Of a DNA stretch of 64,000 bases, positions 1-50,475 are shown piece by piece. The notes under the pieces were generated by a model. That model did no database searches, was not told the DNA's origin, and saw only the letters and a list, made by a program, of their open reading frames with translations. This stretch comes from Oceanithermus desulfurans (GTDB lineage: Bacteria > Deinococcota > Deinococci > Deinococcales > Marinithermaceae). The stretch spans positions 14,640 through 78,639 of the forward strand of contig NZ_JACHEZ010000010.1 in NCBI RefSeq assembly GCF_014201675.1, written 5' to 3'. Positions within the stretch are counted from its first letter, which is position 1, and each line of letters opens with the position of its first letter. The translations under genes and the position numbers were made by a program.

Positions 1-455
1 CCCAGGCTCGCGGTTCAACCGGTCGGTGACCTCGATGATCGGGTCGAAGGAAAGCTCGGGCGGATAGCCCCGGAAGCGTCCGGCGACGGCACGCCACCAG
101 GACGACCCGGTCGTGGTTTTGCGGGCTGGGGTCTTCCTTGAAGCAGGCCGCCTGGTAGGCGACGATCGGCGGCAAGCCCAGCTCGAGGGCATCGCTCACC
201 ACCCGCTCCAGATGATCCAGCAGCTCGGGTGGCGTCCTCGCGCACGCGGATGCGCACGTGGTCGAAACCCATCCGCTTGAAGGCCCGAGCCTCGTCCCGC
301 CGGTAGAGGCGCATGCCCCGGGGCGTCTTGGCCCAGTCCACGTCGACGCCGACCCCCAGGAGGCGCTGGTAGCTGCGGGGGCTCACGGGTGCCCCGGCGT
401 GCGCGTGGGGTGCGGCAAGCAGCAGCAGCCCAAGCCAAAGAACGATCCGCCGCAT
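1..455 (-). pseudogene. Secreted glycoside hydrolase (GH5/cellulase-like) gene, apparently frameshifted; C-terminal part runs off the window edge
   Basis: N-terminus has a signal peptide followed by 'GVDVDWAKTPRGMRLYRRDEARAFKRMGFDHVRIRV', a GH5-like beginning. Near ~240 the frame degenerates, and the sensible continuation ('...LDHLERVVSDALELGLPPIVAYQAACFKEDPSPQNHDRVV...') lies in another frame (track ORF 196..492). Confidence 0.4.
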
Positions 456-504
456 GCCCTTCAGGCCACACCCGCAACGGGCCCGCTCCCACGCGGATAC
501 GGCG

Positions 505-536
505 TGAACTAACTTGACTTAGCTAAGAACTTAGTT
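505..536. promoter_or_regulatory. Nested palindrome AACTAA-N5-CTTAGCTAAG-N3-TTAGTT with TTGACT hexamers upstream of vapB; putative autoregulatory operator/promoter of the toxin-antitoxin pair
   Basis: Perfect inverted repeats read directly in the AT-richer intergenic stretch before the 549 start. Confidence 0.35.
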
Positions 537-548
537 TACATTGACTTT

Positions 549-785
549 ATGGACAAACAGGTCAACGTGCACATGGCCAAGACCCATCTGTCCCGGCTCC
601 TCGAAGTGGTGCTCCTTGGGGAAGAGGTCGTAATCGCCCGCAGCGGCAAGCCCGTAGCCCGTCTGGTGCCTGTACAGGAAACTCCTTCCCGGCGTACCCC
701 GGGCACGGCCCGTGGCCTCGTGCGCATGGCGGACGACTTCGACGCGCCGCTCCCTGCAGACCTCGCGGAGGCCTTTGGGCCGTGA
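549..785 (+). CDS. vapB: Type II antitoxin, Phd/YefM (prevent-host-death) family, partner of VapC
   Basis: 78 aa. 'AKTHLSRLLEVV..GEEVVIARSGKPVARLVP' is typical of Phd/YefM-like antitoxins. Its stop overlaps the downstream PIN gene start (GTGA). Confidence 0.75.
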   Translation: MDKQVNVHMAKTHLSRLLEVVLLGEEVVIARSGKPVARLVPVQETPSRRTPGTARGLVRMADDFDAPLPADLAEAFGP

Positions 786-1171
786 GTCGCCTCCTTCTCG
801 ACACCCACGCCTTTCTCTGGTGGATTTCCGACGACCCGCGCCTTTCCCCCGCCGCGCGCGAGGCCATCGCCGACGGGGCCAGCGAGGTCTACCTGAGCGC
901 CGTCAGCGTCTGGGAGATGGTGATCAAGATGGGCCTCGGCCGGCTGGAGCTTCCGGAAGACCTCGAGTCCTTCCTGGCCCGCCAGCTGCAAGCCAACGGT
1001 TTTCGCCCCCTGGCCATGACCCTGCCCCACGCGCTGGCGGTGCGCCACCTTCCCGACGTGCACAAAGACCCCTTCGACCGCCTCCTCGTAGCCCAAGCAC
1101 GGCATGAGGAGCTGGTGCTCATAAGCGGCGACGAAGCCGTGCAACGCTACCCTGTTTCCGTGATCTGGTGA
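782..1171 (+). CDS. vapC: PIN-domain ribonuclease toxin VapC
   Basis: 129 aa. 'LLDTHAFLWW', 'SAVSVWEM', 'DPFDRLLVAQA' PIN motifs. Translationally coupled to the upstream antitoxin. Confidence 0.8.
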   Translation: MSRLLLDTHAFLWWISDDPRLSPAAREAIADGASEVYLSAVSVWEMVIKMGLGRLELPEDLESFLARQLQANGFRPLAMTLPHALAVRHLPDVHKDPFDRLLVAQARHEELVLISGDEAVQRYPVSVIW

Positions 1172-1173
1172 GC

Positions 1174-1200
1174 TAGATCCGCTCGAAGTAACGCTTGTGG
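1174..1200. repeat. Left copy of a 21-bp perfect (about 29 bp imperfect) direct repeat 'cta[g/a]ATCCGCTCGAAGTAACGCTTG[t/c]gg'. It duplicates the 3' end (KRYFERI-stop) of the glutamine-synthetase-family gene
   Basis: Identical 21-mer at 1177-1197 and 3747-3767. The right copy is the genuine 3' end of the 3743..5128 gene on the minus strand. Confidence 0.8.
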
Positions 1201-1270
1201 CCCTAATTGGCGATCGCTTCCTCGCAAACCTTCATTACAAACTCGAACGGCGCAGGGATACATTCACGAC

Positions 1271-2410
1271 TCATGATCCCGGGAAAAGCGGGATCAGCAA
1301 TTGCCCTTCCTCATCGATCTCCCACTCGATGTTCGGAAACTTCCACCCTTCTCCCAGTGGCTCAGCCTGGCTCGCTGAGAAGCTCCGGTAGTGGCCGCTG
1401 TTCTTCCAGGATGCGAAGCTTTGTTGACGTCGCTCCGCACTCTTTCTCAACACGCTACAGAAAGGCTGGTATACATGAGCCATCTTTTCATTGCGAGAGC
1501 CAAATTTCGTGCGCAGCACCGGGGCCACACCGACGGGGGAGCACAGGCCCCTGTAGGTTCCGTCCGCAACGAATCGGGTCGCACCGAGTAGGAGGTCTGT
1601 CGCCTGCAGAAGCTCGCTGTCCCCGCGCTCGCGTATGTCTGCCTCACATCTGCTCGGATTGGAGTCTACCGCACGGATCTCAAACCCCGGGGCGATGGAG
1701 AACCCGGGACGAAGCTCTGGCTTGAGGCGCTCTATCACGCGCATCTCGTCAATGGGCCTACGAAGGTGCTCGTCCCCGTCCAGAACCAACCCAAGTACTT
1801 CCACCTCAACGCTGGCAAAAACATGGTCAAGTCCTGTGTATCCGTAGTGCAACACACCTTTGATGGCCATCCGCATGAGAGTCTCGAAGTATTTGAGCTT
1901 CCTCTCAGGATCGTCCCCTGAATAAAACTCCCTCAAATACGGTGTGTTAGGCGGAAAAAAGAGTGCTCCAAAGCGAAAGAATGGGTAGGGGAGCTCACCT
2001 CTTGGTCCCTTTTGCCGGAGAGAATCGCAGGAAAGGTCAAGAACCCGTCTTCCGTATGCTTCTCGCTTGCTCCACTCCTTGCCCGTCATCTCCGAGGTGT
2101 GGAGCTCGCCATCGTACTTGATCTCTGTGCGTATCGCCTGAACCTGAGATAGGAACCCCTCTCTGGGTAAAAGCTGTTGAGCGGGTGTAATAACTTCTCC
2201 GAACAAAGGTGAATCTTCAGGCGGCCACTCAAGAGTCAAGGTCTCAGGCACAACCAGGATGCCGTGGGCATGTCGCTTGCCCTCAGGCAACTCGGCTTTC
2301 TTAGTCTCATCATGATAGAGCCATACCCTGAGAATGGCATTGGGTTTTATATTTGCCATCACTTCAGTATTGCTCAAAAACAGCGAGGCAAGTCGCGAAA
2401 TTTGAACCAT
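1271..2410 (-). CDS. Hypothetical protein (about 360-379 aa; likely real start at the internal 'MANIKPN...'), low-GC cargo gene with no recognisable motifs
   Basis: Long intact ORF in a roughly 52% GC segment (the neighbourhood is about 68%). An AT-rich promoter-like region lies upstream (2400-2650). No family recognised by eye. Confidence 0.55.
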   Translation of the reverse strand: MVQISRLASLFLSNTEVMANIKPNAILRVWLYHDETKKAELPEGKRHAHGILVVPETLTLEWPPEDSPLFGEVITPAQQLLPREGFLSQVQAIRTEIKYDGELHTSEMTGKEWSKREAYGRRVLDLSCDSLRQKGPRGELPYPFFRFGALFFPPNTPYLREFYSGDDPERKLKYFETLMRMAIKGVLHYGYTGLDHVFASVEVEVLGLVLDGDEHLRRPIDEMRVIERLKPELRPGFSIAPGFEIRAVDSNPSRCEADIRERGDSELLQATDLLLGATRFVADGTYRGLCSPVGVAPVLRTKFGSRNEKMAHVYQPFCSVLRKSAERRQQSFASWKNSGHYRSFSASQAEPLGEGWKFPNIEWEIDEEGQLLIPLFPGS

Positions 2411-2652
2411 ACCGGCGCAATTACAATGCGGAACTTATTACGGATGGACAATCCCCGGATGATAGCGGTAGAAGTATTCAAGGCACGTATAATTTTGGTT
2501 ATCACAACATATTTTGACAGCATATCAAAACCAAACTTTGATGTATCACAAATACGACACGGTGCATTCTTGTTGGCTCGTGGGTTCTATGAGTAGGACG
2601 GCGACTGCGATACCAAGGTTGAATACACTCAACCTTGATGCATATCACTCCT

Positions 2653-3669
2653 CTAGCTGTGTAGTCCGACCACGTTGTTCACACTAACCCCCAAGCGTGA
2701 GATCGGCGCCTGGTAGCCCAGGCTGCTGTGGGGGCGGTGCCAGTTGTAGTAGTGAAGCCACCGGGGAAGGCGGGCTGCCCGCTCCTCCGAGCTCTGGTAG
2801 ACGTGAGCATAAGCCCACTCACTCAGCAGGGTGCGGATGAAGCGTTCCACCTTCCCGTTCACCCTCGGCGTATAGGGCGGCGTGGTCCTGTGCCGGATGC
2901 CCAGCCACCGGAGCACCCTTTGGAAACGCTTGGATTGGAAGATCCGGGCGTTGTCGGTCATCACCGCCTGCACCCGGATGCCCAACCTCCGGTAGTGGCG
3001 GAGGGCAGAAAGCAGAAAGGCGACGGCGCTCTCTTTTCGCTCGTTCTCCTTCGTCTCCACGTAGGCCAGCCGGCTGTGGGCGTCCACCGCGGCGAAGACG
3101 AAGGCGTAGCCGGCCTTTGGTGAAGCCTGCCTCCTGTCCCCCGTCACCCGGTGCCCGGGGCTACGGAAGCGGGCCAGCTTCTTGGTGTCCAGGTGCAGGA
3201 GCACGCCGGGAGCCTTTACCTCGAAGCGCTTGGGCAGGGGCTTGGGTTCCAAAACAGAAAGGCGGTTCAGCCCCCGGGCCTTGAGGACACGAGCCACCGT
3301 ACTCTTGGAAAGGTTCAGCTTGAAAGCGATGGCGTGGTAGGTCCAGCGGCGCCTGCGGAGCTCGACGACCCGGCGGCGTAGACCCTCATGGGTTCTTCTT
3401 GGACTGCGGCAGGGACGTGAACTGCGGTCGTAGAGACCTGCTTCGCCTTCTTCACGAAAACGCCTGAGCCACTTGTAGGCCGTCCTCGGGCTCACCCCCT
3501 GGGCCTTGGCAACTTCCCTTACCGGCAGGCCCTCGTGGATAATACGAGACACAAGGATGCGTCTTCCCTCGAACGTTAGTCGCGCGTTCTTGTGGCTGTT
3601 CACTGGGGCTTGTCCCCGCGAAGGCGGGGGCCCCTCCTCTCGTGCCAAAAGCCATTCCTTCACAGGCAC
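2653..3669 (-). CDS. IS481-family DDE transposase
   Basis: 338 aa. N-terminal HTH ('RTAYKWLRRFREEG'), then an integrase-core DDE region ('HLDTKKL...', 'VMTDNARIF', 'YTPRVNGKVERF', 'YNWHRPHSSLG'). Confidence 0.9.
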   Translation of the reverse strand: MPVKEWLLAREEGPPPSRGQAPVNSHKNARLTFEGRRILVSRIIHEGLPVREVAKAQGVSPRTAYKWLRRFREEGEAGLYDRSSRPCRSPRRTHEGLRRRVVELRRRRWTYHAIAFKLNLSKSTVARVLKARGLNRLSVLEPKPLPKRFEVKAPGVLLHLDTKKLARFRSPGHRVTGDRRQASPKAGYAFVFAAVDAHSRLAYVETKENERKESAVAFLLSALRHYRRLGIRVQAVMTDNARIFQSKRFQRVLRWLGIRHRTTPPYTPRVNGKVERFIRTLLSEWAYAHVYQSSEERAARLPRWLHYYNWHRPHSSLGYQAPISRLGVSVNNVVGLHS

Positions 3670-3711
3670 CAGGGTACGGGGTTCCAGTGAACAACGTGTT
3701 GGGAGGTTACA
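2658..3711 (-). mobile_element. IS481-family insertion sequence (about 1.05 kb) with imperfect 25-bp terminal inverted repeats starting TGT (TGTGTAGTCCGACCACGTTGTTCAC / TGTAACCTCCCAACACGTTGTTCAC)
   Basis: The inverted repeats were found by reverse-complement comparison of both ends. A single DDE transposase ORF fills the element and its C-terminus overlaps the left IR. Confidence 0.75.
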
Positions 3712-3742
3712 TCAGCAAAGCCCCTTTGGGGTCCAGTGATAA

Positions 3743-3770
3743 CTAAATCCGCTCGAAGTAACGCTTGCGG
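3743..3770. repeat. Right copy of the direct repeat (the native 3' end of the GS-family gene) that bounds the inserted segment 1198-3742
   Basis: See the left copy at 1174-1200. Confidence 0.8.
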
Positions 3771-5128
3771 TCCCAGTCGGTCACCGCCTGCTCGTAGGCC
3801 TTCCACTCGGTGCGGAAGAAGTGCAGGTAGTGGGCGTGCACCTCCTCGCCCAGCACCCGGCGGGCGAGCTCGCTGGCTTCGAAGAGGTCGGCGGCCTCGC
3901 GCAGGCTGTAGGGCACCCGCGGCAGCTCGGCCGCAGCGTAGACGTCGCCCTCGAAGATCGGCGGCGGCTCGATCCGCTGCTCGATGCCCGCGAGGCCGCT
4001 GGCCAGCATGGCGGTGTAGGCCAGGTAGGGGTTCGTGTCGGCTCCGGGGATGCGGTTTTCCACACGCAACGAAGCGCCCGCGCCGACGACCCGGAAGCCC
4101 GCAGTGCGGTTGTCGTAGCTCCAGGCCAGCCGCGTGGGGGCCCAGGAGGCGTCCTCGTAGCGCTTGTAGCTGTTCACGGTGGGGGCGTAGAAGACCATCC
4201 AGTCGGGGGCGAAACGGATCAGCCCGCCGAGGAAGTGCAGGAAGATCTCGGAGGCCTGGACGCGGCCGATGGACCGCTCGCCGGCAAAGGCGTTCTGCGC
4301 CTCGGCCCAGAGGCTCATGTGGATGTGGCTGCTCGAGCCCGCCTGGCCACCGGCGGGCTTGGCCATGAAGGTGACGCTCATCTCCTGCTGGTCGGCGATC
4401 TCCTTGAGCGCCTCCTTCATGAGCACGTGGCGGTCGGCCATCTCCAGGGCTTCGGTGTAGCGCAGGTTGAGCTCGTGCTGGCCCCGGCCCCACTCGCCCT
4501 TGGTGCTCTCGACGGGGATGCCGGCGTCGCGCAGGTCGCGCCGGGCGGCGGAGTGGAAGGCCTCGGTGCGCGAACCCTGGAAGACGTGGTAGTCCTCCAG
4601 GTACCAGCCCGCGGGCCGAAGGGCGGCGAAGCCGCGATCGGCAAACTCACGGTAAGGGGTCTCGAAGAGGTAGTACTCGAGCTCGGAGGCCGCCATGACG
4701 GCGAACCCCGCCTCGGCGGTGCGCGCCAGCTGCGCCCTCAGCAGGTTGCGCGGGGCCACGGGCACGGGCTCGTGGTTCGCGGTGCTCAGCACGTCGGCGA
4801 GGACGATTGCGCTGCTGGAGGTCCGGTGCCAGGTGGCGGGGCGCAGGGTGTCGAGGTCGGGCACCAGGTGGACGTCGCCGTAGCCGCGCTCCCAGTTGGC
4901 GAAGGCGTAGCCGGGCACCGGGTTCATCTCCATGTCCACGGTGAGCAGGTAGTCGCAGGCGTGGGTACCGGCGCGGGCGGCGGCCTCGAGGAAGAACTCG
5001 GCGTCGAAGCGTTTGCCCATCAGGCGTCCATAGAGGTCGGGGAAAGCGACGATGACGGTGTCGATCTCGCCCTCGGCCACCAGGCCGGCCAGGGCATCGA
5101 GCGTGAGTTTGCCGCGGGGGTGGGGCAT
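3743..5128 (-). CDS. Glutamine synthetase family protein (GlnA3/PuuA-like, about 460 aa)
   Basis: Motifs typical of the GS catalytic domain ('KPAGGQAGSSSHIHMSLW', 'NSYKRY', 'NRTAGFRV..ENRIPGADTNPYLA'). Confidence 0.85.
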   Translation of the reverse strand: MPHPRGKLTLDALAGLVAEGEIDTVIVAFPDLYGRLMGKRFDAEFFLEAAARAGTHACDYLLTVDMEMNPVPGYAFANWERGYGDVHLVPDLDTLRPATWHRTSSSAIVLADVLSTANHEPVPVAPRNLLRAQLARTAEAGFAVMAASELEYYLFETPYREFADRGFAALRPAGWYLEDYHVFQGSRTEAFHSAARRDLRDAGIPVESTKGEWGRGQHELNLRYTEALEMADRHVLMKEALKEIADQQEMSVTFMAKPAGGQAGSSSHIHMSLWAEAQNAFAGERSIGRVQASEIFLHFLGGLIRFAPDWMVFYAPTVNSYKRYEDASWAPTRLAWSYDNRTAGFRVVGAGASLRVENRIPGADTNPYLAYTAMLASGLAGIEQRIEPPPIFEGDVYAAAELPRVPYSLREAADLFEASELARRVLGEEVHAHYLHFFRTEWKAYEQAVTDWDRKRYFERI

Positions 5129-5267
5129 CTTGGCTCCTTTGGACCAGTATACCGCCCGGCGGGTTTTAGCCTTCCTTCAGCGTCAGCTGCCCGCAGGCCG
5201 CGCCCACGTCCATACCTTGGTCCCGGCGAACGGTCGTGGAGATCTCCCCTTCTCATCCCAAAACACG

Positions 5268-5280
5268 CTAGCCTGGCTAG
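5268..5280. promoter_or_regulatory. Perfect palindrome CTAGCC-T-GGCTAG about 25 nt upstream of the second antitoxin start; putative operator
   Basis: 6-1-6 inverted repeat read in the intergenic region between the GS-family gene and the second VapB. Confidence 0.35.
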
Positions 5281-5305
5281 ACTGGGTGTAGAGGTGAGGA
5301 ACATC

Positions 5306-5554
5306 ATGAGAAGCTGGTCGCTTCAGGACGCCAAGAACAAGTTCAGTGAGCTGGCCCGCCGCGCTGAGGTCGAGGGTCCCCAGTTCGTCACCCGGCACGG
5401 ACGTGAAGCCGTGGTGGTGGTTTCCGCAGCCGAGTTCCGGCGCCTGACGGCTCCGCGGGAAGACTTGGTCAGCTTTTTAGCGCATTCGCCGCTGGTCGGT
5501 GAGGGGTTGGAGATTGAGCGCGACGCCTCGCCCGCACGCGAACTGGAACTCTAG
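5306..5554 (+). CDS. vapB: Type II antitoxin (Phd/YefM / VapB-like), second TA pair
   Basis: 82 aa. 'MRSWSLQDAKNKFSELARRAEVEGPQFVTRHGREAVVVVSAAEF' is the canonical Phd/VapB N-terminus. It is the tail of an otherwise antisense artefact ORF (3821..5554). The stop overlaps the downstream start (TAGTG). Confidence 0.75.
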   Translation: MRSWSLQDAKNKFSELARRAEVEGPQFVTRHGREAVVVVSAAEFRRLTAPREDLVSFLAHSPLVGEGLEIERDASPARELEL

Positions 5555-5979
5555 TGCGCTACCTACTCGACACCCCGGTCATTTCCGAGCTGGTGCGACC
5601 CCAGCCCGAGGCACGGGTGGCGGGGTGGGTTCGTCGCGCTGAACCCACCTCGCTGTACTTGTCGGTCATTACCTTTGGCGAGCTGGCCAAGGGCATCGAG
5701 AGGCTGGCCATTGGGGGCAAGCGCCGTCGGCTGCTGGCCTGGGTCGAGAACGACTTGAAGGGTTGGTTCGCGGGTCGCGTCCTGGCAGTGGACCTGGAGG
5801 TCGCCGAGCGCTGGGGGTTGCTCTTGGCTCGTGCGGAACTGGATGGGGCTCCACTGCCGGCGGTGGACGCGCTTCTGGCGGCCAGTGCGCTTACGCACAA
5901 CCTCGTCTTGGTCACCCGGAACACCCGCCACTTCCGGGTGCCGGGCCTGGAAGTCTTCGATCCCTGGACTGACGCCTAG
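5554..5979 (+). CDS. vapC: PIN-domain toxin VapC (second pair)
   Basis: 141 aa. '[16 protein letters not shown]...', '[11 protein letters not shown]', '[16 protein letters not shown]'. Confidence 0.8.
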
Positions 5980-7094
5980 CTTTCCTTCAGCGCCAGCTGC
6001 CCACAGGCCGCGCCCACGTCCACGCCGCGGCTCCAGCGGACCGAAACCGGAACCCCCGCCTCTTCGAGTGCGTGGGCGAAGCGCTGGATCCGCTTCCGGC
6101 CGCTGCCTTCCACCGGCGCGCCCTCCCAGGGGTTGAAGGGAATCAGGTTGACGTGGGCCACCAGGCCCTTCAGAATCCGGGCCAGCTCGCGGGCCTGCTC
6201 CTCGCGGTCGTTGACGCCCCGCAGCATGGTGTACTCGATCGTCACCCGCCGCTTGGTGCGGTCGAAGTAGGCCCGAACGGCGTCCATGATCTCGGCGATC
6301 GTGTAGCGGTGAGCCGTGGGGATGATCTTCTTCCGTGTCTCGTCGTCGGGGGCGTGCAGGCTGAGCGCCAGCTTGACCCCCAGGTCGTCCGCGGCCAGGC
6401 GCCGGATGCCGCGGGGAATACCCACGGTCGAGAGGGTGACGCGGCGGGGGCTCATGGCCAGGGCGCGCTTGTTCAGCATCCGCCGCACCGCCCAGGCGAC
6501 GTTCTCGTAATTGAGCAGCGGCTCGCCCATGCCCATCAGCACCACGTTGCGAATTTCACGGGGAGAAAGGCCCTGGTGGTAGGCCACGGCCAGGATCTGG
6601 TCGAGGATCTCGGGGCCCGTCAGGTTGCGGCCAAAGCCCATCTTGCCGGTGGCGCAGAAGCTGCAGCCGGCGGGGCAGCCCACCTGACTGGAGATGCAGA
6701 CGGTCTTGCGGTCGGCGTAGGGCAGGAAAACGGCCTCGGTGCGCTGGCCGTCGTGCAGGGTGAACAGGTACTTTACCGAGCCGTCGGCCGAAGGAAAGGC
6801 CTGCACCAGGGCGAACTCGCTGATGCGCCACTCGGCGGGCAGGGCCCCGCGCAGGCGGCGCGGCAGGTCGGTCATCTCGTCGAACTCGCGCGCCCCCTTC
6901 TTGTAAAGCCAGCTGGCGATCTGGTTCTTGCGGTAGCCCTTGCCGGGCAGCTCGTCCGGCGGCTCGGGCAGCAGAATAGGCCTGCGCTCGTCGGGCACCA
7001 CCGCCGCCTCGGGCGCCTGCGCGGGCACGTAGCAAGCCCCCCCGTCGGTCGGGGGTTCGTCTCGTTCGGTGCGGAAGGTAGGGCGTTCGTTCAT
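5976..7094 (-). CDS. rlmN: 23S rRNA (adenine2503-C2)-methyltransferase / tRNA m2A37 methyltransferase RlmN (radical SAM). The ORF as drawn probably over-extends the N-terminus
   Basis: '[26 protein letters not shown]' radical-SAM CxxxCxxC. '[12 protein letters not shown]' and '[10 protein letters not shown]' are RlmN signatures. Confidence 0.85.
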
Positions 7095-43228: not shown

Positions 43229-43302
43229 GCCTGTGGCCTGTAGCCTGTGGCCTGTGGAGATCCACGCGCGCAACCACGTGCTACAAGCCACAAGCTACAG
43301 GC
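43229..43302. repeat. Palindromic REP/MITE-like element: arms GCCTGTGGCCTGTAGCCTGTGGCCTGTGG and CTACAAGCCACAAGCTACAGGC around a 23-nt spacer
   Basis: About 19 of 22 arm positions can pair. The same CCACAGGC/TACAGGC motif family recurs at 49241-49401 and 49795-49823. Confidence 0.65.
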
Positions 43303-43313
43303 TGCCTTTAGCC

Positions 43314-44868: not shown

Positions 44869-45393
44869 TCACAGCTCCGGGAGTCTGCTGTTAATATCTT
44901 TTAATTCCGAGTAAAATTTTTTTGCTTTCTCTAGTCGCTCCGGTGTTGCTTTACGAGGCTTACGACGACTGGTTTCCTCCCAAGGGTCTTCGTACCCCTC
45001 TTCTTTTTTTAAATACAATGCTGTCGCCGCCAATTCTAGCGTGATGGAGTCTGTTTCATTCATTTTCTTTAGCAGTAAGTTTTGCTCATCAGCTTCGGTC
45101 GCATCATCAAGTGTCTTTTTAACTATTTCATATATTGAATATTTTCTCTTTCCATCAGCTGTTAGAGATTCAGTATGTTTGACTATACCCATTGCTGTTG
45201 CTATTTCAATGTGATTTGACAGATCTTCGCTGTATGGCCCATAGTGGAAGTATACATAGTCATAACCCATATCGATTCCGGCCGCCTCCATGATATAAAC
45301 CATTTTCTGAAGCCTAGTTTTACCTACGACTCTCCCACCTGCCTTCTCTATAATTGATACCACCTTCTTAGGGCTGATCACGGGTTTAATCAT
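44869..45393 (-). CDS. Panacea-domain (DUF4065, SocA/GepA-like) protein; putative antitoxin/immunity partner of the upstream HD protein
   Basis: 174 aa in the AT-rich island. 'GKTRLQKMVYIMEAAG...YVYFHYGPYSEDL' matches the Panacea 'T.LKLQKLLYYAQ...YGPV.PE.Y' core. Overlaps the HD gene by 4 nt (ATGA). Confidence 0.55.
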   Translation of the reverse strand: MIKPVISPKKVVSIIEKAGGRVVGKTRLQKMVYIMEAAGIDMGYDYVYFHYGPYSEDLSNHIEIATAMGIVKHTESLTADGKRKYSIYEIVKKTLDDATEADEQNLLLKKMNETDSITLELAATALYLKKEEGYEDPWEETSRRKPRKATPERLEKAKKFYSELKDINSRLPEL

Positions 45394-46835
45394 TTTGCCT
45401 CCTTGATCGCTTGCTCGACCGCACGTTTGGATATGTCCATTACTATACCATAACCATCATTGTCCCCCCTGTCTACGTAAGCCCTAAAAAGGTCCAACTT
45501 GTACGGCCTGGTGACTACAACAGGGGACTCTAATGCAATATCCTGTACTTCTCCATGCACATCCTCAATAAATATCTGACTAAAATTAGGAGTCTTGTTA
45601 TATTCATAGAGCTTTCGGGACTTGCCGTCTATTAATATTCTTGGTTGTTCTTTAGACAGTGCAGAATTGTATTGTTCAATTTCATTTATCACGTAGTTTT
45701 TTACGAGAGTGGATATACTAGGCATAATCTCATCAAATACACCTTTGTCTCTGAGCATTTGTTTTACTAATAGATGAATATCTATAGCTTTATATAAATT
45801 ACGTTCTAATAATTGCTTAGCTAATTTAGATATTCTTAGTATATCGGACTCTGCCAAGTAGTAGAGGCTATTCCAGAATACAGTGTCATCCAATTGCAGG
45901 ATGTTATCTATATTCTTAGGTTCGTTGACGAAATTGACATATTGGTGGTTCTCAGGTAAACCAAGCCTCTTGACGCCAGATGCTCCCTCACTTTTAATTA
46001 TCTTAAATACTTCGGTAAGCAAAGCGGTGAACATACTTTCTGCAGCACGAACTGCTTTATGAAAATACACAGTTGGATACAGCTGAAAAAGCGAGAGAAC
46101 ATAAGTTTCTGCAGCATATATAGCTTTTCTATTCAAAGTAAGCGTAGTTAGTTCGCTGTAACGCTCTCCGTCCTCAGAGTACAAAGGGATTATGCCGATC
46201 TCCATATTCGATAGCAGCCAGGTAAAGTCTATTGCGCTGTTCTGAATCCCTACCATAAGTCTATCCCGCTGCATGTAATCTAGGCGGTCTGCATCAAATT
46301 GACTCGATACAATAGCGTCATAGATATCCTCTGGCTCTTTGGAAATGACGTTTGCGACATCGTCAGGAAAGCCGCTACCCAGGCTTGATAACACGTCAGC
46401 AATCTCGCTATCCGTAATAAGTCGCCTACTTTTCTCCTCGTGGCTTATACTGTCTACCTTAGTAATAGCAAGCACATCTTCGAATGCATGACTGAACATA
46501 CCATGGCCAACATCGTGCAGCAAAGCTGCGGCCAGAACAATATTGGCCTTAGTAGCTGAAAAATTAATATCCAGTCTCCTTTTGATTATATTTATTAGTT
46601 TCCTTGCTATATGAAATGTTCCTATACTATGGATAAACCTAGTATGTGTGGCTCCAGGATACACAAGATCAGTAAAACCAAGCTGTTTGATTCTTCTGAG
46701 TCTTTGGAAGGGTCTAGTTTGAATGACTCTCCACATGTGGTATTCAAATTCTGTATTATCAAATTCAATTAGATTATGCACCGGATCTCTTATTCTCTGT
46801 GGTTTCCTCGTCACATGAATCGCCTCTGGTGTCAT
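45390..46835 (-). CDS. HD-domain dNTP triphosphohydrolase (dGTPase/SAMHD1-like) protein, 481 aa
   Basis: 'HTRFIHSIGTFHIARKL' (His), 'AALLHDVGHGMFSH' (HD motif), 'DADRLDYMQRDRLMVGI' (dGTPase/SAMHD1 catalytic Asp motif). About 38% GC versus about 68% for the flanks. Confidence 0.7.
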   Translation of the reverse strand: MTPEAIHVTRKPQRIRDPVHNLIEFDNTEFEYHMWRVIQTRPFQRLRRIKQLGFTDLVYPGATHTRFIHSIGTFHIARKLINIIKRRLDINFSATKANIVLAAALLHDVGHGMFSHAFEDVLAITKVDSISHEEKSRRLITDSEIADVLSSLGSGFPDDVANVISKEPEDIYDAIVSSQFDADRLDYMQRDRLMVGIQNSAIDFTWLLSNMEIGIIPLYSEDGERYSELTTLTLNRKAIYAAETYVLSLFQLYPTVYFHKAVRAAESMFTALLTEVFKIIKSEGASGVKRLGLPENHQYVNFVNEPKNIDNILQLDDTVFWNSLYYLAESDILRISKLAKQLLERNLYKAIDIHLLVKQMLRDKGVFDEIMPSISTLVKNYVINEIEQYNSALSKEQPRILIDGKSRKLYEYNKTPNFSQIFIEDVHGEVQDIALESPVVVTRPYKLDLFRAYVDRGDNDGYGIVMDISKRAVEQAIKEAK

Positions 46836-46900
46836 ATTACAAATGTAATAGCATGTTTAATGTTCATTTTCAACAGTGGTAACAGTGGTACAGTTGGTCC
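46836..46900 (-). promoter_or_regulatory. Putative promoter of the HD-Panacea operon (TTGAAA-17-TATTAC, about 9 nt before ATG) preceded by the tandem repeat TACCACTGT x2
   Basis: Read on the minus strand: '...tgtaccactgttaccactgTTGAAAatgaacattaaacatgcTATTACatttgtaatATG'. Confidence 0.35.
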
Positions 46901-47137
46901 TGGCACAGGCGCTCTTGTTCCCAAGGCTTTGCAGCGGAGAGTATTGCTAGAGGGCTTTGTTTTAGGCGCTCAGCTCACGGTGATAATAGCTGTACAAACG
47001 ATATAGCGCGCGGCTTAGATTGCTACATTGCTCGAGCTGAGTGCTGACCCATATCCCTAGTGTTAGACGCACGGAACTTACCATGCCACTCTTTGATTGT
47101 GAAGCGCGAAAGCCATAGACTGAAGGGGGAGGCCGCA

Positions 47138-49240: not shown

Positions 49241-49401
49241 GCCTGTGGCTTGTAGCTTGTAGCTTGTGGAAAAACCATTCGATCAATCCCACAGGCTACG
49301 GGCCCCTGGCCACGGGCTCTTCTCGCTTGCGGCTTGTGACTCGTGGCTTGTGGAAAAACCATCCAATCGAGTCCGCAGACTACAAGCCACAGGCTACGGG
49401 C
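49241..49401. repeat. Two tandem copies (about 85 bp each) of the palindromic repeat family: GCYTGTRGCTYGTGG...CTTGTGGAAAAACCATYCRATC...CCRCAGRCTACRRGCCACAGGCTACGGGC
   Basis: Degenerate direct repeats with internal inverted symmetry, lying between trpE and the four-helix-bundle gene. Not exact, so not a CRISPR array. Confidence 0.6.
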
Positions 49402-49420: not shown

Positions 49421-49783
49421 ATGCCTGAAAGCGTCGAAAACCTTCGCATCTGGCAGGAAGGTATGCAACTGGCCAAAGACATTTACCGGGCCTCGAGTTC
49501 CTGGCCCAAAGAAGAGGTTTATGGCTTAACTACCCAGGTGCGCCGGGCCGTTGTTTCCATTCCCGCCAACCTGGCCGAGGGCGTCGGCCGCGGCACGGCC
49601 GCCGAGCTTTCACGGTATTCGCGGATTGCACTGGGAAGCGCTTACGAATTGGGTACGCTGCTTAGGCTCGCGCGCGATTTTGGCTACTTGGCGCATGCAA
49701 ACTTCGAGGAACTGAACGTGCGCGTTTCGTCCCTTGCCAAGCAAATCTCCGCCTTCATCTCCTACCAGGAGGGCCGCAAATGA
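49421..49783 (+). CDS. Four-helix-bundle protein (23S rRNA intervening-sequence protein / Avd-like, TIGR02436 family)
   Basis: 120 aa. 'NLRIWQEGMQLAKDIYRASSSWPKEEVYGLTTQVRRAVVSIPANLAEGVGRGTAAE' is the family signature. Lies inside the trp operon; its stop overlaps the annotated trpG ATG. Confidence 0.75.
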   Translation: MPESVENLRIWQEGMQLAKDIYRASSSWPKEEVYGLTTQVRRAVVSIPANLAEGVGRGTAAELSRYSRIALGSAYELGTLLRLARDFGYLAHANFEELNVRVSSLAKQISAFISYQEGRK

Positions 49784-50475
49784 AAGGCAAGAAACCACAG
49801 GCCACAGGCCACGAGCTACAGGCTGAAGAGGTGCCCCCCACCTCCCACCCCCTATCCCCCGCCCCCCACCTCCTGCTCATCGACAACTACGACTCCTTCA
49901 CCTACAACCTCGCCGACTACCTGGGTCAGCTGGGGGCGCGGCTGACCGTCTGGCGCAACGACAAGTTCGCGCTCGAGGACGTGGAGCGGCTGGCCCCCGA
50001 CGCCGTGGTCATCTCGCCGGGACCGGGCACGCCCGAGGAGGCGGGGCTCTCGATCCCGCTCGTCCGGGAGTACGCCCCCAGGCTACCCATCCTCGGCGTC
50101 TGCCTGGGCCACCAGGCCATCGGCGCCGCCTTCGGCGCGAAGGTGGTGCCGGCACCGCGCATCATGCACGGCAAGACCAGCCCCATCGAGCACTCGGGGC
50201 AGGGCATCTTCATGGGGCTGCCCAACCCCTTCACCGCCACCCGCTACCACTCGCTGGTCATCGACGATCTGCCCGGCAAGCTCGAGGTGCTGGCCTGGAC
50301 GCCCGAGGAAGGGCAGCAGACCGTGCAGGCGGTGCGCCACGTGCGCTTCCCCACGGTCGGCGTGCAGTTCCACCCCGAGAGCATTCTCACCGAGCTGGGG
50401 CTGCAGCTCTTGGCCAACTGGCTCGGCGAGGTCGGGCTGTTCTGGAAGACCCACCCACGGGAGGAGGAGCAATGA
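49780..50475 (+). CDS. trpG: Anthranilate synthase component II (glutamine amidotransferase); true start possibly GTG at 49831
   Basis: 'LLLIDNYDSFTYNL', 'SPGPGTP', 'LGVCLGHQAI', 'HPES' are class-I GATase motifs. Confidence 0.9.
   Translation: MKGKKPQATGHELQAEEVPPTSHPLSPAPHLLLIDNYDSFTYNLADYLGQLGARLTVWRNDKFALEDVERLAPDAVVISPGPGTPEEAGLSIPLVREYAPRLPILGVCLGHQAIGAAFGAKVVPAPRIMHGKTSPIEHSGQGIFMGLPNPFTATRYHSLVIDDLPGKLEVLAWTPEEGQQTVQAVRHVRFPTVGVQFHPESILTELGLQLLANWLGEVGLFWKTHPREEEQ
49795..49823. repeat. Partial copy of the repeat (CCACAGGCCACAGGCCACGAGCTACAGGC) overlapping the annotated 5' end of trpG
   Basis: Same motif family. It encodes the 'KPQATGHELQAE' N-terminal extension if the ATG at 49780 is used. 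Confidence 0.55.

Follow-up and report, generated by a model that had tools for sequence, protein, structure and literature searches.

A two-gene cassette in Oceanithermus desulfurans that joins a predicted SAMHD1-like dNTPase to a DarG-CTD-like partner, a possible toxin–antitoxin or abortive-infection module

Does the AT-rich island at 44869-46900 of this stretch of Oceanithermus desulfurans DNA encode a toxin–antitoxin (TA) or abortive-infection module, in which an enzyme that hydrolyzes deoxynucleoside triphosphates (dNTPs) is held in check by a small partner protein? The island lies in the window, by which we mean the whole 64,000-nucleotide stretch that was analyzed, and it holds two genes, one for an HD-domain phosphohydrolase and one for a small protein of the YwgA family. 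An earlier note on this DNA took the two products for a dGTPase and a Panacea antitoxin, acquired recently as a new defense module. We find that the cassette is genuine and well delimited and that a TA or defense role for it is plausible from the comparisons made here, but the family assignments and the history need to be redrawn. A dNTPase restrained by its partner is the reading that we favor, with a probability of roughly 0.4 on the sequence-based evidence.

The island and its two proteins

The block has a guanine-plus-cytosine (GC) content of 40.0%, close to the figure of about 38% in the earlier note, against 69.6% in the remainder of the window and 68.7% as the window mean. The two genes by themselves are at 40.2%, and the spacer upstream of them (46836-47059) is at 46.4%. 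GC content falls exactly at the stop codon of the small gene (44869), 10 bp past the stop codon of the convergent CPBP gene (44858), and is back up by about 47100, some 200 bp upstream of the HD open reading frame (ORF). The two minus-strand ORFs, their lengths and their 4-nucleotide overlap (Table 1) are as the note had described them, and the motifs that it quoted (LLHDVGHGMFSH, DADRLDYMQRD, TRLQKMVYIMEA and YVYFHYGPYSEDL) are all present. At the junction, which reads ATCAAGGAGGCAAAATGATT, the stop and start codons share an ATGA, and a perfect AAGGAGG stands 5 nucleotides before the ATG of the small gene. Because of this overlap, and because the AAGGAGG lies inside the last HD codons, the layout implies that translation of the partner would be coupled to that of the HD enzyme.

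The start of the HD gene is ambiguous: the ATG at 46835 is without a Shine-Dalgarno sequence, and a GAGG stands before the GTG at 46814. NCBI annotates a protein of 474 amino acids; in the gene calls of JGI, ENA and Logan it has 481. Both genes are real, because the ratio of nonsynonymous to synonymous substitution rates (dN/dS) against a sister Oceanithermus lineage, described below, is 0.13 for the HD gene and 0.11 for its partner; the CPBP gene is at 0.28. A promoter presumably lies in the leader upstream of the HD gene, where a scan for the sigma-70 consensus found no minus-strand site; a terminator scan was likewise empty.

Table 1. Positions in the window of the cassette and its parts
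Feature	Positions	Strand	Remarks
HD phosphohydrolase, SAMHD1/EF1143/YwfO type (COG1078, "YdhJ"), 481 amino acids (474 from the GTG at 46814)	45390..46835	-	Predicted dNTP triphosphohydrolase; candidate effector or "toxin"
YwgA-family small protein, 174 amino acids	44869..45393	-	DarG-CTD-like fold; candidate inhibitor or regulator ("antitoxin") of the HD enzyme
Gene junction, with the ATGA overlap at 45390-45393 and AAGGAGG within the final HD codons	45390..45405	-	Read directly from the sequence
Non-coding AT-rich leader (46% GC) of the HD gene, part of the foreign-composition block	46836..47059	-	Presumed promoter region; from composition
Whole foreign-composition cassette, about 2.2 kb (leader and two genes)	44869..47059	.	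From composition; same-site copy in the sister lineage

What kind of enzyme is the HD protein? The note had credited it with a full dGTPase/SAMHD1 signature, of which the SAMHD1 part stands and the dGTPase part does not. The protein matches the Pfam families PF01966 (HD; 3.8e-12, 46.9 bits against a cut-off of 22) and PF19276 (HD_assoc_2; 1e-7, 32.1 bits against 23.1), and both domains are present in nearly all of its more than 4800 homologues; PF13286, which the note had proposed to find beside PF01966, is absent. Among structures in the PDB the best relative is the Enterococcus faecalis dNTPase EF1143 (2o6i, 1.9e-36), followed by 2q14, 9mr6 (a fungal SAMHD1) and 2hek; vertebrate SAMHD1 matches at about 1e-18 and the solved Dgt structures at 4e-3, and all of the PDB matches are EF1143-like, SAMHD1 or Dgt entries. 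Both NCBIfam and PADLOC have dGTPase profiles, which align with only the N-terminal ~100 residues (20-125), with 43 bits against a cut-off of 152 for TIGR01353 and 22 bits against 400 for NF041026 (antiphage_dGTPase). With matches below threshold and confined to the N terminus, no PF13286 and such distant Dgt structures, an identity as a Dgt-type dGTPase was rejected.

The residues expected of the other type are in place. In an alignment of 31 sequences of the HD clade, Bacillaceae YwfO included, H64, R66, H69, H107-D108, H111, H116, E119 and H132-E133 are invariant or nearly so, as are D181, D183, R184, D186, Y187, R190 and D191 and, further on, Y253, Y257, H259 and R263. Besides the metal ligands, the clade thus conserves HDxGHGxFSH, the H-E pair, DxDRxDYxxRD and YxxVYxHxxxR, and we take the extra residues to correspond to residues of SAMHD1 and to be typical of the SAMHD1 subfamily. 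Because it combines HD with HD_assoc_2 in the absence of PF13286, has EF1143 and SAMHD1 as best relatives and keeps the catalytic residues, the HD protein is, as judged from its sequence, a SAMHD1/EF1143-type enzyme. It is very probably an active dNTP triphosphohydrolase, with the substrate assigned from its relatives, and we consider dNTPase chemistry likely.

For the small partner, the predicted structure points to DarG. The AlphaFold2 model (pLDDT, the predicted local distance difference test, 93.7) has a winged-helix-like N-terminal half and a helical C-terminal half, and a Foldseek search against the PDB returned 7yk3_B/D as the sole significant matches (probability 1.00, template-modeling (TM) score 0.55-0.61). 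The chain 7yk3_B, which is the DarT-binding C-terminal domain (CTD) of DarG in a DarT–DarG complex, aligns over the full length of the small protein (TM 0.59). This is the domain through which DarG attaches to DarT and inhibits it (Deep et al., 2023, as cited in PMC13621843). At the sequence level, the small protein matches DarG of PADLOC at 6.5e-10 (profile positions 168-310 of 329) and antitoxin_DarG of NCBIfam at 1.7e-7 (184-305 of 338). By its sequence it is nevertheless not a DarG, because the NCBIfam match reaches 31 bits against a cut-off of 250. Neither a macrodomain nor an adjacent DarT (DUF4433) is present, the match of the 174 residues to the DarG profiles being confined to their C-terminal part and the upstream gene being that of the HD enzyme.

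Other comparisons fill in the family. JGI names the homologues "YwgA", and YwgA of Priestia aligns with the family in hhalign at 98.7% (E 2e-16). Pfam and Foldseek found no nucleotidyltransferase (NTase) domain or fold in the small protein, and a fusion of the HD enzyme to its partner (about 650 amino acids) is absent among the matches listed, which span 456-547 amino acids for the HD protein and 92-260 for the small one. The N-terminal ~85 residues weakly match PADLOC PDC-M19A (6.8e-8) and phrog_14939 (3e-8), both of unknown function. A fold search of BFVD was uninformative, its top matches being unnamed proteins of archaeal viruses.

The motifs that the note read as a Panacea/DUF4065 core were reasonably recognized, but the family assignment fails. 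At E≤1, PF13274 matched neither the small protein of the window, nor 61 further diverse members of its family, nor Priestia YwgA. The positive control, the validated PanA of Burkholderia phage phi52237, whose MTISAL… start agrees with a primer in the Kurata paper, matched at 8.4e-18. Membership in Panacea by profile was thus rejected, at 0 of 62 family members. A comparison by hhalign with 34 bona fide PF13274 proteins gave probabilities of 74% (A1) or 27% (A2) over only ~55 N-terminal columns, the aligned core being helix alpha1, the LQK helix and the GP strand. In the YwgA-like family, G52 and P53 are invariant and the next residue, in a beta-strand that comes after the conserved LQK helix, is Y/F; the layout is that of the Panacea signature, GPV in strand beta2 beside the conserved central helix, but the third residue is another. 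When a true Panacea protein was modeled (pLDDT 95.6), its best PDB match was again 7yk3_B, although a weak one (probability 0.77, TM 0.46), and a 2026 paper describes DUF4065 proteins as homologous to the DarG C-terminal inhibitor domain (PMC13621843). We take YwgA-like proteins, DarG-CTD and Panacea to be members of a single distant superfamily, in which the window protein stands close to DarG-CTD and has Panacea as, at most, a distant relative. UniRef labels three family members (P0001, P0004 and P0098) as "SocA-like Panacea" or "DUF4065" domain-containing, at odds with Pfam: their precomputed Pfam field is empty, and the present PF13274 model fails to match them.

Linkage, spread and history of the pair

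Are the two genes a unit? We surveyed the 80 best loci in genomes, starting from the partner, and 80 metagenome loci, starting from the HD gene. The HD gene lies directly upstream on the same strand in 73/80 of the former, and four of the other seven are contig ends. The partner lies downstream in 70/80 of the latter; eight more lack room for it, and the last two are truncated HD matches, one of which shows the partner at the expected end of a full-length HD gene. Junctions in the related loci are mostly -4, -1 or another short overlap. Conservation as neighbors, a check that the note had proposed, is thus borne out, and we regard it as nearly certain that the two genes form a functional, obligate pair.

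In 64 of 71 loci the GC content of the pair is below that of its flanks (mean difference -0.10), and no neighboring family is conserved around it, the maximum being 4 of 131 immediate neighbors for any Pfam family; from this lower GC and variable context we conclude that it has often been transferred as a unit. The small-protein family comprises 2,529 representatives at 50% identity, with relatives in 249 species-level genomes, and the mobile cassette is scattered across Alphaproteobacteria, Desulfovibrio, Synergistaceae, Acidobacteriota, Myxococcota and Deinococcota. In Priestia, ywfO–ywgA is flanked by pta, hemQ, rsfA, ywhB/C/D-like genes, a PBP gene and speEB. This locus is homologous to the cassette in both genes, with 34% identity (5e-49) between YwfO and the HD protein, and the two-gene unit is therefore ancient; in Bacillaceae it belongs to the core genome, and elsewhere it is a mobile cassette. 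One record, p2_CACC119 of Priestia megaterium (NZ_CP140268.1, 314437-324907), is a 410-kb "plasmid" with a core-type ywf–ywh–speEB region that includes pta, hemQ, PBP1A and ywfO–ywgA; it is either a chromid or a mislabeled or misassembled chromosomal segment.

How long has Oceanithermus carried the cassette? Both island proteins are 100% identical to O. desulfurans entries. In a sister Oceanithermus lineage, represented by metagenome contigs, the cassette occupies the corresponding site and converges there, too, on the Rce1-like and bPH genes. Both island genes have a DNA identity of 0.89 between the lineages, against 0.79 in the CPBP gene and 0.86 in the upstream DNA, and the GC content of the island is ~0.39-0.42 in both. 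The same-site copy, these identities, the GC content and the dN/dS values together show an island that is foreign in composition, older than the split of the lineages and kept by selection. The horizontal acquisition proposed in the note therefore stands as far as the foreign composition goes, but "recent" was an overstatement. As for integration signatures, no tRNA gene, integrase or credible flanking direct repeats were found at the island; one 12-nucleotide exact repeat pair was set aside, as it lies inside the GC-rich flanking genes and was judged to be due to chance. In a scan of reference genomes, the best match to the small protein was 50% identical (Roseospirillum), though O. desulfurans GCA_007991015.1 encodes a 100% version. 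The species representative may be without the island, or the assembly scanned may be a different or masked one, and the island may vary in presence between strains.

The neighbors in the window are, on one side, genes for Band_7, a weak RHH/Arc match, bPH_5 and the Rce1-like CPBP protein and, on the other, DUF4082 and trpE. Elsewhere, a palindromic intergenic (TGTRGCY)n repeat occurs at 43232-43306, 49244-49398 and 49795-49820, and TGTRGCYTGTRGCYTGTGG has 12 matches with at most two mismatches (0.02 expected), in inverted arms around short spacers; the repeat looks like an element of the Oceanithermus genome of the repetitive extragenic palindrome (REP) or miniature inverted-repeat transposable element (MITE) kind. 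Palindromic repeats of this type flank a plus-strand gene at 49421-49783, which encodes a 120-residue "23S rRNA-intervening sequence protein" (PF05635, 3.7e-33) between trpE (end 49222) and trpG (from ~49780), in a stretch of lower GC content (0.57-0.58), and this flanking suggests that the gene is a small insertion into the trp operon. The sole stretch below 56% GC (500-nucleotide windows) besides the island is at ~1601-2900. There, a minus-strand ORF of 379 amino acids without a solved relative (1271-2410) may be another foreign cargo gene, and a second minus-strand ORF of 338 amino acids (2653-3669) resembles, by eye, a DDE (rve-type) transposase with an N-terminal helix-turn-helix. No Rfam families were found in window positions 1-6000.

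Candidate function and its rivals

In the reading that we favor, the cassette would be a self-contained, horizontally mobile two-gene module. Its catalytically competent HD enzyme would most likely hydrolyze dNTPs to deoxynucleosides and triphosphate, and the translationally coupled YwgA-family partner would bind the enzyme directly and restrain its activity. Were the partner lost or displaced, for instance upon phage infection or host translation shut-off, the freed enzyme would deplete dNTPs and thus halt DNA replication of phage and cell alike, a behavior akin to that of a type II TA or abortive-infection module. The comparisons themselves establish a real gene pair, kept by purifying selection, obligately linked and mobile, whose enzyme has its catalytic residues intact and whose partner has a DarG-CTD-like fold; what we infer is the dNTP substrate, the physical binding, inhibition rather than activation, and the immune or addictive role. 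That the partner binds and restrains the enzyme seems to us an even chance, and that the module serves in defense or as a TA system is possible but somewhat short of even.

Several lines of comparison favor the scheme. The enzyme has EF1143 and SAMHD1 as its closest solved relatives and keeps the metal-binding and catalytic positions, the partner resembles a toxin-inhibiting domain both in profile and in fold, and the pair is linked and mobile, with DISARM, type IIG R-M or AbiEii-like neighbors at some loci. The gene order, toxin and then antitoxin, matches that of DarTG, and there is precedent both in Clover, where CloA is restrained by CloB, and in the class of HD enzymes with PanA compiled by Kurata et al. 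Like a type II TA system, the cassette is a tightly linked bicistronic pair that is conserved as a unit and horizontally mobile.

A number of observations, however, count against it. Frequent carriage on plasmids, prophages and other mobile elements, a further trait of type II TA systems, is not seen here: only 3 of 2.9 million viral contigs (IMG/VR) carry the pair, unlike typical TA systems, no phage genome does, and plasmids have only the Priestia ywfO–ywgA locus. The partner has been conserved about as well as the enzyme (40-50% and 45-50% identity, respectively; dN/dS 0.11 and 0.13), in contrast to labile antitoxins, which evolve fast. The 131 immediate neighbors of the pair are mostly housekeeping genes. 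In the window itself the neighbors of the island are of native GC content and have no PADLOC match, and the defense-island-like neighborhood that the note had seen there was rejected; its Arc/PH/CPBP operon corresponds to actual genes, but the link to defense falls away. The search of PADLOC v2, also proposed in the note, gave only partial, sub-system matches (dGTPase, DarG, PDC-M19A), with no dedicated system model for either protein. We found no functional study of YwgA, of YwfO–YwgA or of a pair of HD and DUF4065 proteins in the literature. EF1143-type enzymes have been made recombinantly for crystallography, which suggests that they are not extremely toxic. Finally, the homologous ywfO–ywgA is a core-genome pair amid Bacillaceae housekeeping genes, a setting that fits a metabolic role.

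The main rival builds on these same points. In it, the two proteins form a housekeeping or regulatory two-subunit enzyme. The HD protein would be a sanitizer of the dNTP pool or of non-canonical nucleotides, and the YwgA-like protein, as a stable subunit, would regulate it (possibly by activation), set its specificity or direct it to its target. On this view Oceanithermus gained the cassette horizontally as an accessory to metabolism and not as an immune or TA module. The company kept by ywfO–ywgA, the mostly housekeeping neighbors also in the mobile clade, the well-conserved partner and the rarity of the pair on plasmids, phages and viral contigs all speak for it, as does the retention of the island by the sister lineage, at the same site and under purifying selection. 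Against it stand the systematically lower GC content of the pair and its variable context, which argue for frequent transfer as a unit, and the fact that the only structural relative of the partner is a toxin-inhibiting domain. Moreover, the pair appears in a few genomes to sit among DISARM or restriction-modification (R-M) genes: raw counts among the 131 neighbors are three DrmMI, three DrmD and two DrmA (DISARM), three type IIG R-M genes and two AbiEii-like ATPases. We hold this account to be doubtful, although it must be taken seriously. At five loci (L003, L040, L041, L048 and L053), same-strand ORFs of 1000 or more amino acids flank the pair and are candidates for a DISARM or R-M context.

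A second rival, which we consider improbable, keeps the enzyme but changes its substrate to nucleic acid (through SAMHD1-like binding of single-stranded DNA or RNA, or as a nuclease), to NTPs or to a signaling nucleotide, so that no dNTP depletion would follow. The HD superfamily is chemically diverse and sequence cannot reveal the substrate; in addition, the C-terminal ~130 residues of the HD protein (~350-481) are without a solved relative, and HD_assoc_2 covers only residues 231-278, in contrast to the nearly full profile matched in YwfO. Yet the closest characterized relatives, EF1143 and SAMHD1, are both dNTP triphosphohydrolases, and the residues of the SAMHD1 subfamily are conserved beyond the metal ligands. 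Least probable of all is a third rival, in which the small protein would act chiefly as a winged-helix transcription factor on its own operon and would not control the enzyme directly: many type II antitoxins bind DNA, and the N-terminal half is basic (isoelectric point 9.3, in a charge analysis that was not decisive) with weak winged-helix matches such as the PadR-like 3elk_B (probability 0.98, 81 columns, E 0.28), but the full-length match is to DarG-CTD, a protein-binding inhibitor, the most conserved motifs (ELELAATA and DPWxET.RRKPxKA) sit in the C-terminal helical half, and strict coupling with 1:1 co-occurrence with one enzyme clade exceeds the needs of a generic repressor.

If the dNTPase is indeed restrained by its partner, what would follow? 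The cassette would be the first case of a dNTP-depletion effector controlled by a protein antitoxin, and nothing else in prokaryotes would come as close to the regulated restriction by SAMHD1. Gating by the partner would constitute a third mode of control in dNTP-depleting immunity, after the constitutive or allosteric dGTPases and the nucleotide signal of Clover, and would bring a metabolic "toxin" under the antitoxin fold of DarG-CTD and Panacea. It would also provide a function for the long-unannotated YwgA family and the Bacillus ywfO–ywgA pair and would tie bacterial SAMHD1-like enzymes to immunity. In its broadest form, HD–YwgA would be a widespread and experimentally unrecognized anti-phage or abortive-infection system, in which a DarG-CTD/Panacea-superfamily protein gates a SAMHD1-like dNTPase; such a system, which would span at least 2,500 sequence clusters and at least 249 species-level genomes, B. 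subtilis ywfO–ywgA among them, we put forward tentatively and think rather unlikely. The cassette in the window is itself one ordinary member of a large, catalogued family of gene pairs, and thus a pointer to a widespread module more than a unique discovery.

Relation to known systems

How does the cassette stand toward systems already described? The pairing is not undescribed, as the note had supposed, because Dataset S1 of Kurata et al. (2022; PMC8832971) lists a class, pT33/T34, in which an "HD domain-containing protein" (CDD YdhJ) comes before a PanA that lacks an N-terminal domain. The class has the order T|A with overlaps of -4/0/-17, comes from Ammonifex, Desulfofundulus and Caldicellulosiruptor and is marked "notest"; the combination of HD and PanA was thus catalogued in 2022, and ywfO–ywgA is homologous besides. 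Panacea, DUF4065, antitoxins and operons all go unmentioned in a survey of dGTPase homologues from 2026.

The closest likeness in the partner is to DarTG. In fold the small protein agrees with the domain by which DarG binds and inhibits DarT; in sequence the two are weakly to moderately similar and share an "LQK...Y" helix and a "YGPYSE" strand. In both systems the effector gene comes first and the inhibitor second. The effectors differ, an HD phosphohydrolase here and the ADP-ribosyltransferase DarT there, and because the cassette partner is without a macrodomain, it would not be expected to have an enzymatic (type IV) antidote activity.

PanAT systems share the general plan of a small, promiscuous antitoxin-type domain beside a potentially toxic enzyme, and the T34 class, as described in that dataset, also shares the order of HD gene and partner and the range of overlaps. 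The N-terminal alpha-helix, "LQK" helix and GP-strand core is analogous in the two partner families, and DarG-CTD is the best PDB match for both. The cassette partner differs, however, in having no PF13274 match, GPY instead of GPV, an extra beta-hairpin (residues 71-90) and a different C-terminal half.

For the enzyme and its control, the nearest precedent is Clover (PMC12265719), also a two-gene operon, in which CloB keeps the HD dNTPase CloA, toxic on its own, in check until infection. CloB is a Pol-beta-type NTase that acts through an inhibitory nucleotide, p3diT, whereas the cassette partner appears to be non-enzymatic and DarG-CTD-like; its modeled fold, unlike that of the Clover partner, suggests inhibition by protein–protein contact. 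The single-gene defense by Dgt-type dGTPases (Tal et al., 2022; PADLOC "dGTPase", NF041026) likewise draws on the HD superfamily and on predicted dNTP depletion, but through another subfamily, as the scores of 22-43 bits against cut-offs of 152-400 and the absence of PF13286 indicate, and it has no partner gene.

Bacillus YwfO–YwgA, finally, is the same two-gene unit, homologous in both genes. The Bacillaceae pair is vertically inherited among housekeeping genes, whereas the clade to which the Oceanithermus cassette belongs is mobile, deviant in GC content and spread across phyla, and the C-terminal third of the cassette HD protein has diverged from that of YwfO. Compared with the characterized systems, then, what is new in the cassette is the combination of a predicted dNTPase effector with a partner of the DarG-CTD/Panacea superfamily.

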